A stretch of 46,480 bases of DNA from positions 1 through 46,480 of the forward strand of contig JAFGSQ010000042.1 of NCBI GenBank assembly GCA_016934535.1. Reading direction: 5' to 3'. A program made the translations under genes and the position numbers. Under the pieces are notes generated by a model. It was given only the letters and a program-made list of their open reading frames with translations. It was not told the origin of the DNA and did not search any database. Position 1 is the stretch's first letter; each line of letters opens with the position of its first letter. Origin of the DNA: a candidate division WOR-3 bacterium. GTDB lineage: Bacteria > SDB-A. Shown here in pieces: positions 40,045 to 46,431 of the stretch.

Positions 40045-40878
40045 TTATTGTTCTTTCTTTTTCACTCTCAATTTGATTATCTTTTGTCTTGTAGCATCAA
40101 TAACTTCGAATTCGAGATTGCCGTCGGAAAATTTTTCACCTTTTTTGGGTATTTTTTCCTGTTTGTCGAGAACGAATCCCCCTACTGTGTTGTAATCTTC
40201 TGATTCGAGATTTAAGTTCAGCAGATCATTGAAATCGGAGAATTCCATCCGCGCGTTCACAAGATAAGAACCGTCCTCCTCCACAGAGAAATCTTCCTCT
40301 TCCTGTTCCCTCGTGTCTTCTATCTCCCCAATTATCTCTTCAACAAGGTCTTCAAGGGTCACAATTCCGCAGACCCCGCCGTATTCATCGACCACCATGG
40401 CAATTGAAAGATGCCTTTCCTGAAGGTCTTTTATTGTTTCCAGAACCGTTTTACTTTCCGGAATAAAATGAGGCAGACATGCAAAATCTATCGCTTTGTA
40501 AGGAGTTTCAAGAATTTCGTGCAGAAAAGGTATGACATCTTTTATTTTCAATATGCCCACTACGTCGTCAATGGTGTCCCCGTAAAGGGGTATTTTGCCG
40601 AAACGGTGAAGTGTGTACGCTTCTATTATTTCGTCTATTCCTGCCGTCGCAGGCAGAAAAACAGTTTCAACTCTCGGCACCATGATTTCCTCGACTCTTG
40701 TGCTCGTCAGATACATTACGCCCTTCAGAATGTCGGCCTCGGCTTCCGATATGATACCTGATTCTTTCCCTTTGTTTATTACGGTTTCGGCTTCTTTTTC
40801 CTTGTTTTCTTTTCTGTTCTTTATCAGTTCTCTAATAAATTCAATTATTTTTTTTCGTTTATTTGATTCTCCGTTCAT
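40045..40878 (-). CDS. corC: CBS-pair + CorC_HlyC domain protein (no DUF21 membrane domain)
   Basis: IMVPR, VVDEYGG..GIVTLEDLVEEIIGEI, YNTVGGFV. Confidence 0.8.
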   Translation of the reverse strand: MNGESNKRKKIIEFIRELIKNRKENKEKEAETVINKGKESGIISEAEADILKGVMYLTSTRVEEIMVPRVETVFLPATAGIDEIIEAYTLHRFGKIPLYGDTIDDVVGILKIKDVIPFLHEILETPYKAIDFACLPHFIPESKTVLETIKDLQERHLSIAMVVDEYGGVCGIVTLEDLVEEIIGEIEDTREQEEEDFSVEEDGSYLVNARMEFSDFNDLLNLNLESEDYNTVGGFVLDKQEKIPKKGEKFSDGNLEFEVIDATRQKIIKLRVKKKEQ

Positions 40879-41552
40879 GTCTCGGTCCCTTTTTCATCCT
40901 CTCTTATTTTTATGTTTTTTCTGGGCGTGATTATGCCCCCTGAAACAACCACTCTGATCCCCTCCTCAATAGTCAGTTCTGTCATCTTTATTTCCTCCTC
41001 GGGAAGCAGGAGATAAAAACCTGAAGTCGGATTCGGCGTCGTGGGCACAAACACCGACCCGAGATTTGTTTTTTTTCCGTCTTCGGAACATTTTTCAACC
41101 CACGATTTAGTGTTGGTCAAAAATCCTAACGACCAGCATCCCGTTCTGGGATATTCTATCATGACAACTTTCTGAAAAGCTCTTTTGTCGAGAAAAAATG
41201 TTTCGGTAAGCTCTTTCACTCCGTTGTAAATAATCTTTATGAGCGGCAGTTTTGTCATGAGGGCATTAGTCCATCTGATTAAAATCTTGCCTATGAATGT
41301 TCTCGCGACGACTCCGGTTATAAATATAAATGCGACCAGTAATATAAAACCCATCAGGTCCTCGACCAATCTGGGAAAAGGAAGATACCTTGCGAAAGGT
41401 TCCAATACAGTCCCGCCAATCTCGATGATGAACTTGAACACGAAAACAGTCAGACCTATCGGAAGAAGAGTCACCACTCCCGTAATAAAAATATTCCTGA
41501 TTTTGGCTTTAAATCCATGCCTGGAACGAGGCAATCCGTCTCGATCGTCCAT
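40875..41552 (-). CDS. DUF502-family membrane protein
   Basis: FITGVVTLLPI.LT, IEYPR.G.W.LGF.T, VFVPTTPNPTSGF, VVSGG. Confidence 0.85.
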   Translation of the reverse strand: MDDRDGLPRSRHGFKAKIRNIFITGVVTLLPIGLTVFVFKFIIEIGGTVLEPFARYLPFPRLVEDLMGFILLVAFIFITGVVARTFIGKILIRWTNALMTKLPLIKIIYNGVKELTETFFLDKRAFQKVVMIEYPRTGCWSLGFLTNTKSWVEKCSEDGKKTNLGSVFVPTTPNPTSGFYLLLPEEEIKMTELTIEEGIRVVVSGGIITPRKNIKIREDEKGTET

Positions 41553-41556
41553 GACT

Positions 41557-42174
41557 TTATTTCAAAATGCGGAGCCAGTCGTGCATCAAAAAATAAAACC
41601 TTCCTATCAACAGGGATATTCTTGCCATCACAGTGTATCCGAATGACGCACCGAATGTGATCATAAGAAAAATCATACCTGTTCTCGCTCCCGCTCTGAA
41701 AAGCCATTTATGCTCTATGGAGAAAAAGAAATAGAAAAGACCTGTGGCCGTACCGACGAGAAGAAGTATCTCGCCTGCGGAAGAAAATAAGTTTCCGTTC
41801 CACAGCGGGACAATGGCTGAATAAACCTGTTCGTAAAGATTCGATTTCAGAAACGTAACGAAGCCGTAGCCGGCTCCTATTCCGACAACAAAAGCAATTG
41901 AGATGTGAGAAAACCACCTTGTTTTATCAAAAAGCTGAAGGATAATGAACAGAGAAAGGGCTGCGGGAAATACGTAAAGAAGATTTCCTCCCCTGAGAGG
42001 CATTATCAGATTTGGAACCACGACGTCGTGCCAGCCCTGAACCAGCAAGTAGCCCGCTGATACTCCGACGTAGATCGATTCGGCAATTTTGTAAAAAACG
42101 TTGTCTTTGTACAAAAAACTGAATATCGCGAGAGTCAGAAAACCCGCGATCCAGATCCCAACCGTCTCAGTCAA
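41557..42174 (-). CDS. Conserved hypothetical polytopic membrane protein (cassette gene 4)
   Basis: TTG start overlapping the upstream stop; about 6 hydrophobic segments; SFLYKDN motif; three GxxxGY motifs. Confidence 0.8.
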   Translation of the reverse strand: MTETVGIWIAGFLTLAIFSFLYKDNVFYKIAESIYVGVSAGYLLVQGWHDVVVPNLIMPLRGGNLLYVFPAALSLFIILQLFDKTRWFSHISIAFVVGIGAGYGFVTFLKSNLYEQVYSAIVPLWNGNLFSSAGEILLLVGTATGLFYFFFSIEHKWLFRAGARTGMIFLMITFGASFGYTVMARISLLIGRFYFLMHDWLRILK

Positions 42175-43003
42175 TTTTTTTCCCTCTCTTCTGTATGAAA
42201 TAAATTACGTTGCCGAATAAAATAAAAGCTATTATGCATATATGCGCTATCGACTGCGCGTCCATTCCGCTCGACGCCATGCCGGGACTATCGAGAAGCT
42301 GTTCGTAATCCGCCGCTCCTGCCATCCCTCCGATTAGACCGATAAGTTGACCCGAATTGAAATACGGAGAATACGCCGGCGCGCTGACCGCTGTGCAACC
42401 GGCTATAATATTTTTTCCGTATTTATCCTTGCCTATCTGAACCCAACCAATCACACCGGGATCTCCGGCCGACAATGTAACTATCACGGCGATTTTGTCG
42501 AGATTGAAATTGACTTCTTTAAGGACCTCAATGTCTTTTGTGCTTCTGCCCGTCAAATCTCTGGGACACGTTTTTTTTATGTCTCCAGCAATATTGTCAA
42601 TCGCGACAACTCCCCCCGACTTATATCCCAGGTTGACGAAATTTATCCACCGTTCCTTGTCGTATTTTAGCGCCGCTTCATTGAGCGCGTTTTCCGCGAA
42701 TCTCACTCCCTGGGGCCACAGGGCGACCGTTATGACGTTAACGTTTTTTGAAAATGCATGCTCAATAATCGATTTACCCATAGGATATAATTCAGGCGCT
42801 GCGGCAGGATCAAAATCGAAGGAAACAAGTATGATAGAATTTTCGGGCAGGCTGTCTATGAAAGCGAAGGAAGAATAAACCGCCTTGGAATCCTCCTTGT
42901 CGACAATTATCGGTATCCGGAGAGGAAAGAGAAGCGGAACAACTACAGCGAGCGCTATGAAAAGAAATATTATCCTTCTGTCAAGTTCGAATATTTTCTT
43001 CAA
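42167..43003 (-). CDS. Conserved hypothetical membrane-anchored alpha/beta protein (cassette gene 3), probable distant paralogue of the DUF6754-like domain
   Basis: N- and C-terminal TM helices; NLGYKSG, GCTAVSAP, SGQLIGLIGGMAGAADYE, MDAQS. Confidence 0.8.
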   Translation of the reverse strand: MKKIFELDRRIIFLFIALAVVVPLLFPLRIPIIVDKEDSKAVYSSFAFIDSLPENSIILVSFDFDPAAAPELYPMGKSIIEHAFSKNVNVITVALWPQGVRFAENALNEAALKYDKERWINFVNLGYKSGGVVAIDNIAGDIKKTCPRDLTGRSTKDIEVLKEVNFNLDKIAVIVTLSAGDPGVIGWVQIGKDKYGKNIIAGCTAVSAPAYSPYFNSGQLIGLIGGMAGAADYEQLLDSPGMASSGMDAQSIAHICIIAFILFGNVIYFIQKRGKKID

Positions 43004-43614
43004 TTCAGGTATGACCTTTCAATGCCGAATATTATCCTCAGTGACGTAGCTATAACGCCCAGAGCGGCGCCGATCATTATTGCTCTCTGCCCAGCAGTGT
43101 TTGGAATTTCCATTATCCAGGCCTGCGCCGCCGGAAGATACGAAAAAATTATTTTTCCTATGGGTACCCTTCCGAGCATAACTATTATCGCTGCTGTCAG
43201 CAGGAGGCCTGCTTCGAGATTCCTCGCTCTGAATGCGCGAAAAGACGCCGATGCGACAAAAAAAGCAAGAAGAGAGAACATCGTCGCATTCAACGGAGTG
43301 TAAAAATGCCTGAAAATAAAATCAAACGCCGAGCCTTCCTCCATACCTCCTCCCCATCCTGCAAATACGGTGACTAGAAGCGTGAAAATAATGACGGCGG
43401 AATAAAACCAACCCCTCCTCTTTTTCATCATCTTCAGGAAATTCACTTTCAGAAGGTTCAAAATCCCCAATATCATTGCAAAGACCGCGACGACCATGTA
43501 CCAATTCTTGAGAGTGTTGGCCGCCTCTCCAACCGGGTAACGAGGAACGAAAAACGACGCGATTATAATCATCCCGCTGACGAATGTTATTGCGAGCGGT
43601 ACGTATCTTTTCAT
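43000..43614 (-). CDS. Conserved hypothetical polytopic membrane protein (cassette gene 2)
   Basis: About 6 hydrophobic segments; TMFSLLAFFVASASFRAFR and GQRAIMIG..LG...SLRIIFGIER; ATGA overlap with the next gene. Confidence 0.8.
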   Translation of the reverse strand: MKRYVPLAITFVSGMIIIASFFVPRYPVGEAANTLKNWYMVVAVFAMILGILNLLKVNFLKMMKKRRGWFYSAVIIFTLLVTVFAGWGGGMEEGSAFDFIFRHFYTPLNATMFSLLAFFVASASFRAFRARNLEAGLLLTAAIIVMLGRVPIGKIIFSYLPAAQAWIMEIPNTAGQRAIMIGAALGVIATSLRIIFGIERSYLN

Positions 43615-43632
43615 GTTAAAAAACCGCCTTTG

Positions 43633-44940
43633 TTATCCCGTAAAAAAAATATTTTTAATAATATTTACCCCGAACGAAGCGAGAATACTGCCTGCGACGA
43701 TAGCCGCTATTGCGGCGGCTTTTCCGAAATCCTGCGCCTTCAGACTTCCGATCAAGTGAGGATCGTTCGACATGTAGGCGCTGGCGGCGAAAAATTCTTC
43801 GCCGATTAAAGTGTAGTCGCAAGCCGCAACAAAAAAGGGCAGTTGTGAAGGGTCGGCGGTCCCCGATATCTGTATGGCTCCAATTGAATGTCCGGTTTCA
43901 GCCAATATCAGGGATTCGGCATAAAAATGACCCATAAGAAAAACAGTGGCCGGTTTCTCTCTGACCATTATTCCGTCAACCGCGGCCGCGTATCCGAATT
44001 GATCACCGGTAAGATAGAAAACCGAATTTTCATCGTAGGAGTCCGGTCTACCTTCCTGAATGTATGCCTGTCTGACTATTTCTTTTGCCGTGTTGTAAGC
44101 TACAGGGGCGATGGAAGGAACAGACAATTTGCTCTCATAATTAGCCACTCTTCTTGCGACTCTGCCGAGAATTATCATTCCCGCAATGGTTTGAACATCA
44201 TCCATGTCCATTATACCTGGGATGAACAACACATCCTTACCCATCTCGGTGGCTCTGCCGATGGCTTCGTCGACGGCATCAATTCCGCTCAGTTTTCTTA
44301 TGAAATACTTCTTTCCTCTGCCGGCGCTTCTTATGAAAAAAATGAGAAAAAAAGTAAATATAAGGCTTCCAGCAAACATCGAAATGCTCGACTTGGAAAA
44401 CCACGGTTTGTAATAGCTCATTTTTTCAGATTCGGCAGAAGTCAGGTTATGGTGTCCGTCAAAACAAGCAATAGCAAAATAACTGTATTTTTTTCCTTCG
44501 AGAATGTCTTCGTCTGCGTAAAGAGACGAATCCATCTTTAAAGAAACCGTGTCATTTCCGCACACTTTAAAAAGCATGACACTGTCGGGATAGATCCATT
44601 CTCTTCTGCCGTCTTTCACTGGGGGAAGTTCTGTGTAAATTCCCGTGCTGTCCAAACCGAATATCCCGTATGATATCTCAAACCTGAAAGTGCCGCTTTG
44701 TTCCGAAGAAAACTTCGCGGTTTCTATCTTGATTACTGAAGGAAAATTCCTCAAACAAAGTGTGTCGTCATAAAAAGGGATTTCAGTGATCCCGTCAGTT
44801 TCCTCTTCTTCCCGCGCCTCCTGAGAAGCTGAAACAGCAGTTTCCCGTTGAGCTGGAACGATTATTTTTGAAACAAAAAATGAAACTGCCGACGACAACA
44901 AAAAAAGGAACAGCAATAAAACGCCTATTGTTTTCGACAT
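43633..44940 (-). CDS. Membrane protein with FN3-like extracytoplasmic region and C-terminal DUF6754-like domain (cassette gene 1)
   Basis: N-terminal hydrophobic segment, YADEDILEGKKYSYFAIA (FN3-like), TM, then IRKLSGIDAVDEAIGRATEMG...LIGEEFFAASAY...SLKAQD. Family name recalled from the motif, not searched. Confidence 0.75.
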   Translation of the reverse strand: MSKTIGVLLLFLFLLSSAVSFFVSKIIVPAQRETAVSASQEAREEEETDGITEIPFYDDTLCLRNFPSVIKIETAKFSSEQSGTFRFEISYGIFGLDSTGIYTELPPVKDGRREWIYPDSVMLFKVCGNDTVSLKMDSSLYADEDILEGKKYSYFAIACFDGHHNLTSAESEKMSYYKPWFSKSSISMFAGSLIFTFFLIFFIRSAGRGKKYFIRKLSGIDAVDEAIGRATEMGKDVLFIPGIMDMDDVQTIAGMIILGRVARRVANYESKLSVPSIAPVAYNTAKEIVRQAYIQEGRPDSYDENSVFYLTGDQFGYAAAVDGIMVREKPATVFLMGHFYAESLILAETGHSIGAIQISGTADPSQLPFFVAACDYTLIGEEFFAASAYMSNDPHLIGSLKAQDFGKAAAIAAIVAGSILASFGVNIIKNIFFTG

Positions 44941-44948
44941 ATAAAATT

Positions 44949-44977
44949 AGAATATTTTAAAACAAATCCACAGTCAA
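44949..44977 (-). promoter_or_regulatory. Putative sigma70 promoter heading the four-gene cassette (near-leaderless)
   Basis: TTGACT (44977-44972), N17, TATTCT (44954-44949), 8 nt before the ATG; no Shine-Dalgarno. Confidence 0.55.
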
Positions 44978-45063: not shown

Positions 45064-46401
45064 CTATTGTGTGTCCTTTGAATGCTTTCTGTAGAAAACC
45101 TCGAGAAAATGATGGCATTGCTGAGGCCTGTAAAGCCCGTTCATAATTGCCTTTGCCATGTGTTCGCACGACATGTAACCGCACGCGGCGCAGTTTTTTA
45201 TGTCTTCTTCGGTGAATTTTTCCATTTCCTCGTACAGAGCCTTTATCCCGTCTTCGTCCGGGTCTTCTAGTGTTTTGTAATTCTCGGATTTGTCCGTGTA
45301 TTTTCTCGAAAAATCTACGTCATTCATGTCTTCGAGTATTTTCTGGAGTTTTGAAAGAGCGTCCGGGTCAGGATAATTCTCTTTTTGCTGTTTTTCGAGC
45401 CTTTCACTCTGCAGTTTCAGTATCTCGTCTGTCGTCCTTTCGTCGTAATTCGTCCCCGTGCCTCTGTTGCAGCCGTGAAGACAGTTCAGTATGTCGACGA
45501 GAATTACGTCGCATTTTTTATCTTTTATTTCTTTTTCGAGCTCCTCGAAAAATTCCTCGTAAATTTCCTTGCCTTCCGTCCTTCTCACCTGATGCATTTT
45601 AAGCGGCACGTTATATCTTTTGAATGTCTCAAAAAGGCCTCCGGGCTGTGAATACAGAATACCTCTCTCCGCTTCCATCGGTCCGTCAAAATCCGTCGCG
45701 GGAAATTTTGAAAGATCGATTCCGTTTTTCTCCAGATATTTTTTAAGATTGGTTATTGTGACATTGTATGTTATCTGGCCCTTCGTGTTCGGGTCCTGAA
45801 ATTCGCGGCTTTTTGCTATGCAGGGGCTTATGAAGGCATGTTTCATTCCAGGGTGTTTTTTGTGGACCCATGCTGAAATGTCCATAACAGGACTGCCTGT
45901 CGGGGCTAAATAGGGTAAAAGTTCCGGTTTGTATATCTCTATAAAACTCACCACGGCAGGGCAGGGTTGAGCTATGACAGGTGTTTTAGCTCCCGCCTGT
46001 ATGGCTTTCAAATACTGATACGTTGTTATTTCGGCGCCGAAAGAGACGTCGAAGTTCATCTTGACACCAATCGATTTGAGCCAGCCCAAAAGATTCTTGA
46101 GCTGTCCCGGGAAATTTACGTCTACAGCTGGCGCTACGAGAGCGGCAATGTTCTCGCCTTTTTTCAGGTCTTCTATGAATCTTTCCGTGTCATCAACTAT
46201 GATTCTCGCATCGTGAGTACATGCTCTGACACAGTTCCCACAGCCAATGCAGAGATCGTGATTTACGGTGATGCCTTTCTCCAGGTCGGAAGCGTCGTTG
46301 CAATACTTGACCGGGCACACCTGAATGCAAACGTGACATTGAACGCACTTCTCACTGTCTACATCTACGACAGTCGGCAGGTGAAATTTCATCTCCGGCA
46401 T
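45064..46401 (-). CDS. [FeFe]-hydrogenase-like protein, putative sensory group C/D type (2x[4Fe-4S], H-domain, C-terminal FeS motif)
   Basis: CVQCHVCIQVCP and CIGCGNCVRAC; P1 AQPCPA, P2 SPCIAKSRE, P3 ILNCLHGC; Cx2Cx4Cx16C. GGAGG favours ATG 46401 over 46413. Confidence 0.82.
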   Translation of the reverse strand: MPEMKFHLPTVVDVDSEKCVQCHVCIQVCPVKYCNDASDLEKGITVNHDLCIGCGNCVRACTHDARIIVDDTERFIEDLKKGENIAALVAPAVDVNFPGQLKNLLGWLKSIGVKMNFDVSFGAEITTYQYLKAIQAGAKTPVIAQPCPAVVSFIEIYKPELLPYLAPTGSPVMDISAWVHKKHPGMKHAFISPCIAKSREFQDPNTKGQITYNVTITNLKKYLEKNGIDLSKFPATDFDGPMEAERGILYSQPGGLFETFKRYNVPLKMHQVRRTEGKEIYEEFFEELEKEIKDKKCDVILVDILNCLHGCNRGTGTNYDERTTDEILKLQSERLEKQQKENYPDPDALSKLQKILEDMNDVDFSRKYTDKSENYKTLEDPDEDGIKALYEEMEKFTEEDIKNCAACGYMSCEHMAKAIMNGLYRPQQCHHFLEVFYRKHSKDTQ

Positions 46402-46431
46402 TGCATCCTCCATTTTTATTCTTATAAAATA

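Follow-up and report, generated by a model that had tools for sequence, protein, structure and literature searches.

A conserved four-gene DUF6754 membrane module in a candidate division WOR-3 genome and its possible coupling to a MutL-type actin-fold ATPase

The window analysed here is a 46,480-nucleotide stretch from the genome of a candidate division WOR-3 bacterium (contig JAFGSQ010000042.1 of assembly GCA_016934535.1), and our subject is a cassette of four consecutive membrane-protein genes on its minus strand, which a sequence-only reading of the DNA had proposed to encode an undescribed four-subunit membrane complex. The list of open reading frames (ORFs) agrees with that reading in the number and lengths of the genes (435, 204, 278, and 205 aa), all of which run in one direction. 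Gene 1 (g1; 43633..44940, minus strand), the DUF6754 subunit, encodes a signal or anchor helix followed by an ecto-region, a transmembrane (TM) segment, the DUF6754 domain and a C-terminal TM segment. Gene 2 (g2; 43000..43614, minus strand) encodes a six-TM subunit according to the family-averaged topology, and gene 3 (g3; 42167..43003, minus strand) encodes, according to its ORF and structure model, a Rossmann-like domain that is predicted to be extracytoplasmic and is held between two TM segments. Gene 4 (g4; 41557..42174, minus strand) encodes another polytopic protein with a predicted topology of about six TM segments. The genes are tightly packed, with an 18-nt gap between g1 and g2, a 4-nt overlap between g2 and g3, and an 8-nt overlap between g3 and g4.

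Gene 1 belongs to the Pfam family DUF6754 (PF20539), which it matches over residues 179-432 with an E value of 7.3e-116 and a score of 386.2 bits against a cut-off of 27, so that the earlier label of an unnamed family does not apply to this subunit. Genes 2, 3, and 4 have no match in Pfam, NCBIfam or the sequences of the PDB, and none of the four proteins falls into a characterised transporter family in these collections, in keeping with what had been supposed. The impression that Walker and cofactor motifs are missing is likewise borne out by a regular-expression search over all four proteins, which found no Walker A, CxxC, CxxCH or GxGxxG motif, and the nucleotide-binding motif GxGxx[GA] occurs in neither g1 nor g3. 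More specific comparisons gave no FtsX/MacB or MotA_ExbB family match for g1-g4, no PilN, PilO, MreC or MreD match for the four proteins, no TrkH/KtrB match, and no PNT match for g1. As for the membrane domains of ATP-binding cassette (ABC) transporters, a weak match to TMD0_ABC appears in 15 of 70 g2 members (best E 9e-5) and not in the g2 of the window. The TM cores of g1-g4 contain no conserved D or E, and those of g2 and g4 no conserved D, E, K, R or H; the conserved polar residues of g2 and g4 sit in loops, and an invariant asparagine (N265) lies in the second TM segment of g3. That g2 and g4 have no conserved charge in their TM cores counts weakly against an ion-coupled mechanism. PDB profile searches with g2, g3, g4 and two partner proteins described below (u375 and MutL) returned nothing significant, and in the ESM Atlas g2 led to unnamed clusters only and the DUF6754 domain to no named look-alike. 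A literature search on DUF6754, PF20539, and PF13941, with supplements outside its scope, found no paper.

The two bitopic subunits share an architecture. AlphaFold models, computed from 70-sequence alignments sampled at random from 106 (g1) and 100 (g3) sequences after removal of identical ones, show the order TM, ecto-region, TM, alpha/beta domain, TM for g1 and TM, alpha/beta domain, TM for g3. The predicted local distance difference test (pLDDT) exceeds 90 over residues 190-430 of g1 and is low over residues 27-140, and the g3 model has a pLDDT of 93.0 and a predicted TM-score (pTM) of 0.88. Both alpha/beta domains run from a TM segment through a helix and six beta-alpha units to a last helix that enters the C-terminal TM segment. 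These models, together with the family TM averages, agree with the earlier description of two membrane-anchored alpha/beta-domain proteins and two proteins of about six TM segments. In the window, the DUF6754 domain of g1 with its six beta-alpha units spans aa 205-407 (43720..44328, minus strand) and is predicted to be cytoplasmic from counts of lysine and arginine (K+R). The ecto-region spans aa 29-185 (44386..44856, minus strand) and is a degenerate region resembling the fibronectin type III (FN3) domain, as indicated by the family profile, the low pLDDT and the low K+R of its flanks. The N-terminal part of the DUF6754-subunit family profile matches titin FN3 with an E value of 1e-20, and the FN3-like region formerly read in gene 1 therefore holds for the family profile; the window copy, however, aligns to the family hidden Markov model (HMM) only from residue 133, which corresponds to the last part of the FN3 module, and is modelled with low confidence.

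Topology was predicted from family-wide positive-inside K+R counts. The DUF6754-domain side of g1 carries 7.1 K+R within 15 residues of the membrane versus 1.9 for the ecto-region, which predicts a cytoplasmic DUF6754 domain and an outward ecto-region. For g3, the abundance of K+R in the two short tails (3.3-3.8 each) puts the domain on the outside. For g2, the family average gives six TM segments with the N-terminus inside and a conserved arginine-rich loop between TM4 and TM5 that is predicted to be cytoplasmic. About six weaker TM segments were found for g4, with its conserved residues mainly in loops and in the C-terminal segment.

Foldseek searches of both models against the PDB gave generic Rossmann matches only, with TM-scores of 0.15-0.35. 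The best 50 fold matches of the g1 domain include LpxB (Z 10.2), PGK and sirtuins, MT0777 (1kjn; Z 9.8), KtrC (Z 9.5) and MurG (Z 9.4), and transhydrogenase dIII also occurs within this flat list (4j16_C, Z 9.2; 4o9u_B, Z 8.9). The best 50 for the g3 domain are equally flat and include 1kjn (Z 10.6), short-chain dehydrogenases/reductases (SDRs), KtrA (Z 9.4) and TrkA (Z 9.2). Similarity to RCK/KTN domains (Z 9.0-9.5) is level with that to SDRs, sirtuins and enzymes of the glycosyltransferase-B (GT-B) fold, and 12 PDB chains are common to the two top-50 lists. B12-binding domains and ClpP/S49 folds are not among the best 50 fold matches listed, which excludes nothing.

The alternation of the four genes had been described as an A-B-A'-B' pattern and as a pseudo-symmetry. 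The pattern stands as a matter of architecture, but a sequence relationship of A to A' and of B to B' was not recovered: BLASTP gave E values of 1.3 for g1 against g3 and 0.058 for g2 against g4, and hhalign, applied to alignments of 86-106 sequences, gave probabilities of 3.7% and 0.6%, respectively. The two Rossmann-like domains are moreover predicted to lie on opposite faces of the membrane, and pseudo-symmetry in the sense of paralogy thus loses its footing. What the g1 and g3 domains have in common is a fold class and an architecture, which falls short of paralogy, although a distant common origin is possible.

Conservation of the cassette as a unit was assessed in a scan of one genome per species, for which an alignment of the five DUF6754 paralogues of the window genome served as the query. 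It gave at least 596 pattern matches, of which 582 stood up to confirmation, and 74 distinct loci were retained. According to the labels of the metagenome-assembled genomes, they derive from Zixibacteria, Stahlbacteria, Fermentibacteria/Aegiribacteria, Cloacimonadota, Ignavibacteria, Poribacteria, Coatesbacteria, Eisenbacteria, Gemmatimonadetes, Planctomycetes, Armatimonadota, Bacillota, and others. HMMs for g1, g2, g3, and g4 were built from 106, 106, 100, and 86 length-filtered ORFs, and against HMMs built from the other loci the g2, g3, and g4 of the window score 280, 345, and 256 bits. The 74 loci contain 113 g1 genes, 17 of which were dropped for short flanks. Among the 96 with at least 2.6 kb of downstream sequence, 92 are followed by g2, g3, and g4 in this order; the four exceptions are a truncated second cassette (L024), a split g1 (L039), an FN3 protein that matches in the FN3 part only (L067) and a lone DUF6754 gene (L030).

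Cassettes often stand in tandem, two to four in a row. Nine loci have exactly three complete cassettes, and in each of the four families 26 of their 27 proteins have their nearest relative in a different locus at the matching position of the array; clades specific to array position also appear in the DUF6754 tree. Since the position-matched relatives recur in all four families, the duplications took in whole cassettes and are old, and the parts have since diverged in parallel. Searching 1.84 billion representatives (clustered at 50% identity) with the g3 profile gave 5426 matches at E <= 1e-3, of which 1482 reach E <= 1e-30, and g3-g4 fusions (P0171, P0185, P0254) were found among the best 150 of the 5426. 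Strict co-occurrence of the four genes is thus upheld by their order in 92 of 96 cases, by unit-wise duplication and by the g3-g4 fusions, and conserved order, duplication and fusion argue, from sequence, for a physical complex of the four proteins. A complex prediction for the DUF6754 part of g1 with g2, g3, and g4 reached a score of 0.66, with 0.00 and 0.00 for partner-replaced controls and 0.68 when g3 was replaced, and it was not used on the question of binding.

The exceptional gene in L030 (9548-11935) encodes a lone 795-aa Zixibacteria protein in which DUF6754 (171-419) is joined to a C-terminal Peptidase_S49 domain of the SppA type (582-731), with no g2-g4 genes nearby; such a fusion is rare and may point to proteolysis as an output. 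The expectation of recurring peptidase or amino-acid fermentation neighbours was not borne out across the 74 loci. The commonest cluster of non-family neighbours occurs in 11 of them, and sulfatase, SDR, 3-dehydroquinate (DHQ) synthase and MotA/ExbB genes each occur in at most seven, with the look of lineage synteny.

Across phyla, the cytoplasmic DUF6754 domain is nearly constant, and subunits 1, 2, and 3 carry variable modules at predicted outward positions. Its identity between phyla is 47-71%, with many invariant columns in the alignment of the domain. There are 691 DUF6754-domain proteins of 763-2175 aa; among the 120 of them listed, the domains ahead of PF20539 are FN3 (PF00041), propellers (PF13360, PF13570, PF01011; pyrroloquinoline quinone (PQQ)-like), RHS (PF05593), and PF25059 or PF16656. 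Relatives of g3 have inserts near position 115, such as CARDB (P0169) and HEAT repeats (P0228), and the g2 relatives of L016 and L047 hold an FG-GAP propeller of about 390 aa in a loop predicted to face outward. The insertion sites of the extra domains fit the predicted topology.

All six genomes sampled from the phylum to which the window belongs contain DUF6754, as do 208 of 208 in the phylum of G006, where most have four to six matches; 14 well-known control genomes have none. A presence/absence test of gene partners is uninformative in these two phyla because every genome is positive.

A candidate partner emerged from the other cassettes of the same organism. The window genome (2.23 Mb) has five PF20539 matches, and on its contigs C38 and C49 the genes for MutL, u375, g1, g2, g3, g4 and a second DUF6754 protein follow one another in this order. 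MutL is a protein of about 600 aa that matches PF13941 over the full profile with E values of 7e-130 (C38) and 1e-117 (C49) and has further weak matches to PF01968 and PF05378; u375 is a 375-aa protein with no family. PMC5597319 assigns the glutamate mutase (MutL) family to the actin superfamily. The MutL alignment has both phosphate motifs of the acetate and sugar kinase/Hsc70/actin (ASKHA) fold invariant or nearly so, MutL and u375 retain 66-69% mean identity across phyla, and the mutL-u375 pair lies directly upstream of cassettes in many loci of several phyla. A role of MutL as a glutamate mutase helper was ruled out for the window genome, since this 100%-complete genome has no match to GlmE (PF06368).

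Co-occurrence was counted in 251 genomes of the phylum of G008, with PF13941 scored at E <= 1e-20. Both families are present in 62 genomes, DUF6754 alone in three, MutL alone in six and neither in 180, giving totals of 65 genomes with DUF6754 and 68 with PF13941. Full-length MutL was also found in four of four further carrier genomes, unlinked to the cassettes in two. The sequence-only reading had called the complex ATP-independent, which is now doubtful: a MutL-type ATPase accompanies 62 of the 65 carriers as against six of the 186 non-carriers, and it is encoded directly upstream of other cassettes in the same genome.

Several observations concern these linked loci in their own right. The second DUF6754 gene (g1'; L006 6356-7507 and L007 422-1573), which completes a g1-g2-g3-g4-g1' order, lacks g2-g4 genes of its own unless a divergent cassette serves it. 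Such a cassette, the fourth, lies directly after the regular one on C38 (L006 7948-11015) and encodes proteins of 372, 211, 246, and 226 aa with the same TM architecture. Its members score 6e-18 (g1), 4e-5 (g4), and 0.005 (g3) with the family HMMs, with no g2 match and no Pfam match at E 0.001, which hints at a wider superfamily beyond the detection of PF20539. Contig C49 (7882 bp) is collinear with C38 47-7503 at 79% nucleotide identity, the sister genomes G003 and G004 have one such locus each, and the bin has a contamination of 3.9%; either an old duplication or co-binning of a contig could thus account for C49, and there may be fewer than five true copies. A divergent pair of a MutL-like protein (716 aa, PF13941 at 2e-38) and a u375-like protein (420 aa) is encoded on contig C32 (L082 8164-11573), surrounded by the housekeeping genes argS, recO, and purC, which give no clue from context. 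The MutL paralogue of G002, a genome of the same genus with a cassette of the window type, resembles this pair, and C32-type pairs may serve solo cassettes such as that of the window.

Around the window cassette, a promoter-like site (TTGACT, 17 nt, TATTCT; 44949..44977, minus strand) lies in the 123-nt gap upstream of gene 1 and matches the sigma-70-like consensus at nine of 12 positions. The promoter assigned to the cassette earlier is present as this one site, but such sites are not enriched over shuffled sequence (17 versus 14.7 +/- 3.9), and we regard it as a plausible candidate for the start of the transcription unit. No terminator-like site was found after gene 4. The gene of a DUF502 membrane protein (40875..41552, minus strand) starts 4 nt past the gene 4 stop and overlaps by 4 nt with a gene for a protein of CBS and CorC_HlyC domains (40045..40878, minus strand), which dnaE abuts in turn. 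The tight coupling noted before thus holds within g1-g4 but fails as a boundary of the cassette, since DUF502, CBS/CorC, and dnaE continue it. Among the 74 loci, the downstream order g4-DUF502-CBS/CorC is repeated in one alone, L008, which is the closest orthologous locus and has 71% identity and the same synteny; DUF502 is a lineage-specific neighbour of gene 4 that is probably co-transcribed with it, and the CBS/CorC gene is a lineage-specific neighbour as well. The CBS/CorC_HlyC protein has no TM segment, and its translational coupling, with DUF502, to g4 and dnaE is an unusual operon partnership. Upstream of the cassette, in the window as in L008, a 449-aa [FeFe]-hydrogenase-like protein is encoded (window 45064-46413, minus strand), with two ferredoxin-type 4Fe-4S motifs, a C-terminal putative Fe-S domain (PF04060) and an Fe_hyd_lg_C domain that scores far under the NCBIfam cut-offs; it may be a sensory or non-catalytic relative of hydrogenases. 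The record of L008 is labelled 'uncultured Desulfuromonadaceae', and the window genome sits in a phylum of six species genomes; the label may be mis-assigned.

We favour, with a confidence that stops somewhat short of even, an interpretation of the four proteins as a membrane adaptor that links one cytoplasmic ATPase to interchangeable extracytoplasmic binding domains. They would assemble into a hetero-oligomer in which two polytopic subunits accompany two bitopic ones, the latter each holding a Rossmann-like domain flanked by membrane helices. The MutL/u375 pair would dock on the DUF6754 domain and on the cytoplasmic loops that are conserved in subunits 2 and 4, and ATP-driven motion would pass via the membrane helices to the outward domain of g3 and the ecto-domain of g1, which would act on the envelope or on an external ligand. 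One ATPase could serve several paralogous modules in this way. A wider proposal, which we put forward more tentatively, is that the DUF6754 module and the MutL-type/u375 pair constitute an unrecognised class of ATP-powered envelope machine, in which one actin-fold ATPase would drive several interchangeable modules, each with its own binding domain (FN3, beta-propeller, CARDB), in a core envelope function of several mostly uncultured phyla, and that the proteins gathered in the Pfam 'MutL' family would mainly be its engine and not a helper of glutamate mutase. We know of no characterised system with this composition.

A number of points weigh against the adaptor interpretation. Its mode would resemble that of mechanotransmission systems rather than that of a classical ion-coupled transporter, a resemblance by analogy only. 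The window cassette has no MutL or u375 neighbour, and of the 23 loci flanked on each side by 5 kb or more, only five have mutL or u375 within 5 kb. The 100%-complete G002 has the window-type cassette only, together with a distant MutL paralogue and no match to u375. The Fisher p value of the co-occurrence (9e-48) is overstated, as the genomes are related and non-independent and many of them are incomplete. The orientation of g4 is ambiguous from the positive-inside counts, and the fold matches, being flat lists of generic Rossmann folds, give no functional clue.

An ATP-independent secondary transporter or gated channel, with subunits 2 and 4 as the pathway and with Rossmann-like domains that are regulatory in the manner of RCK/KTN or bind the substrate, appears unlikely to us. 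Two polytopic subunits of about six TM segments each would suit this explanation, as would the missing Walker motif, the absence of an adjacent ATPase from the window and G002 cassettes, and the presence of KTN/RCK domains and TrkA among the fold matches of both domains (Z 9.0-9.5). These RCK matches are, however, tied with dozens of unrelated Rossmann folds and come without GxGxxG, the Pfam matches to transporters are inconsistent (the best being the weak TMD0_ABC in 15 of 70 g2 members), and the TM cores of g2 and g4 hold no conserved charge. Strong genome-level co-occurrence with the ATPase also speaks against a transporter or channel, and large propeller, FN3, and CARDB modules would be unusual for small-solute carriers. 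A similarly low probability is given to a membrane enzyme complex of envelope biogenesis, for example in the synthesis or modification of glycans or lipid-linked polymers, in which the DUF6754 domain would be catalytic and ligand-binding. Although the N-domain of LpxB (Z 10.2), MurG (Z 9.4) and other GT-B enzymes are among its top folds, these matches do not rise above the generic background, a GT-B fold has two Rossmann domains rather than one, and no glycosyltransferase or other enzyme family was matched by sequence. Conserved residues at the C-terminal strand ends, the ligand site of Rossmann enzymes, and the universality of the family in whole phyla, as expected for a core envelope function, are what an enzyme complex would predict, but it would leave the variable ecto-domains and the ATPase partner unexplained.

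We consider it improbable, more so than either of these, that the cassette encodes a transmembrane receptor or signalling complex whose ecto-domains sense ligands and whose DUF6754 domain relays the signal inward. Four dedicated subunits and presence throughout whole phyla would be unusual for sensors, and no kinase, cyclase, HAMP, receiver or DNA-binding domain is found in the cassettes or recurrently beside them, even if a variable, sensor-like outside with a constant inside and several paralogous copies per genome are features that receptors would share. The proposition that the four proteins are co-regulated only, with no assembly and with the MutL link as phylogenetic hitch-hiking, strikes us as very improbable. 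It can draw on co-assembly being argued from sequence and on co-occurrence counts that are uncorrected for relatedness, and it is opposed by the fixed gene order across many phyla, the unit-wise duplication and parallel divergence of the four families, the g3-g4 fusions, and the position of mutL and u375 directly upstream of cassettes in several phyla.

At least two phyla have the module in each genome sampled, often in about five copies, and its identity across phyla is 50-60%, yet it has neither an assigned function nor a solved relative. The g3 family alone, with 5426 representatives, has no family model, and the module points to an annotation blind spot in uncultured lineages such as Zixibacteria, Fermentibacteria, Cloacimonadota, Poribacteria, and Planctomycetota. 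Should it be the membrane part of an actin-fold-ATPase machine, this would amount to a new energy-coupling principle in bacterial envelope biology, and the main role of the Pfam MutL family would have to be re-assigned.

Several known systems can be set beside the proposed adaptor. ABC transporters are set apart by their Walker A subunit and their membrane-domain match, both of which are missing in the four proteins of the window, and ion-driven stators (MotAB, ExbBD, TolQR, GldLM) by a conserved acidic residue in the membrane and a MotA_ExbB match, neither of which g1-g4 possess. With Trk/Ktr systems, the likeness consists in a Rossmann-like domain combined with polytopic subunits and in the fold matches to KtrC, KtrA, and TrkA at Z of about 9, which are level with those to other Rossmann folds; here, however, there is no GxGxxG, helix anchors stand at both ends of the domains, and one of the domains is predicted to face outward. 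In FtsEX and MacB/LolCDE (type VII ABC systems), a cytoplasmic ATPase works through helices that transmit its motion to outward domains acting on envelope targets. The logic proposed here would be alike in concept only, as the partner is of the actin fold (ASKHA), with no ABC ATPase and no Walker A. Systems such as PilM-PilN-PilO and MreB-MreC-MreD combine an actin-superfamily cytoplasmic protein with bitopic or polytopic inner-membrane partners that have periplasmic domains. That pairing resembles the one suggested for the DUF6754 module, but the MutL-type protein differs in being closest to the hydantoinase branch, and we know of no filament formed by MutL-type proteins.

The nearest points of reference are the two families from which the parts take their names. 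The window cassette has the same g1-g2-g3-g4 order as the Pfam DUF6754 family, whose name carries no function and in which genes 2-4 are without a family model, and the window copy differs by its degenerate FN3 region and by its separation from the ATPase genes. The partner ATPase matches the PF13941 profile of GlmL/MutL from the coenzyme-B12 glutamate mutase operons over its whole length (E 7e-130); in contrast to those operons there is no GlmE here, and mutL is followed by u375 and then by the DUF6754 cassettes.

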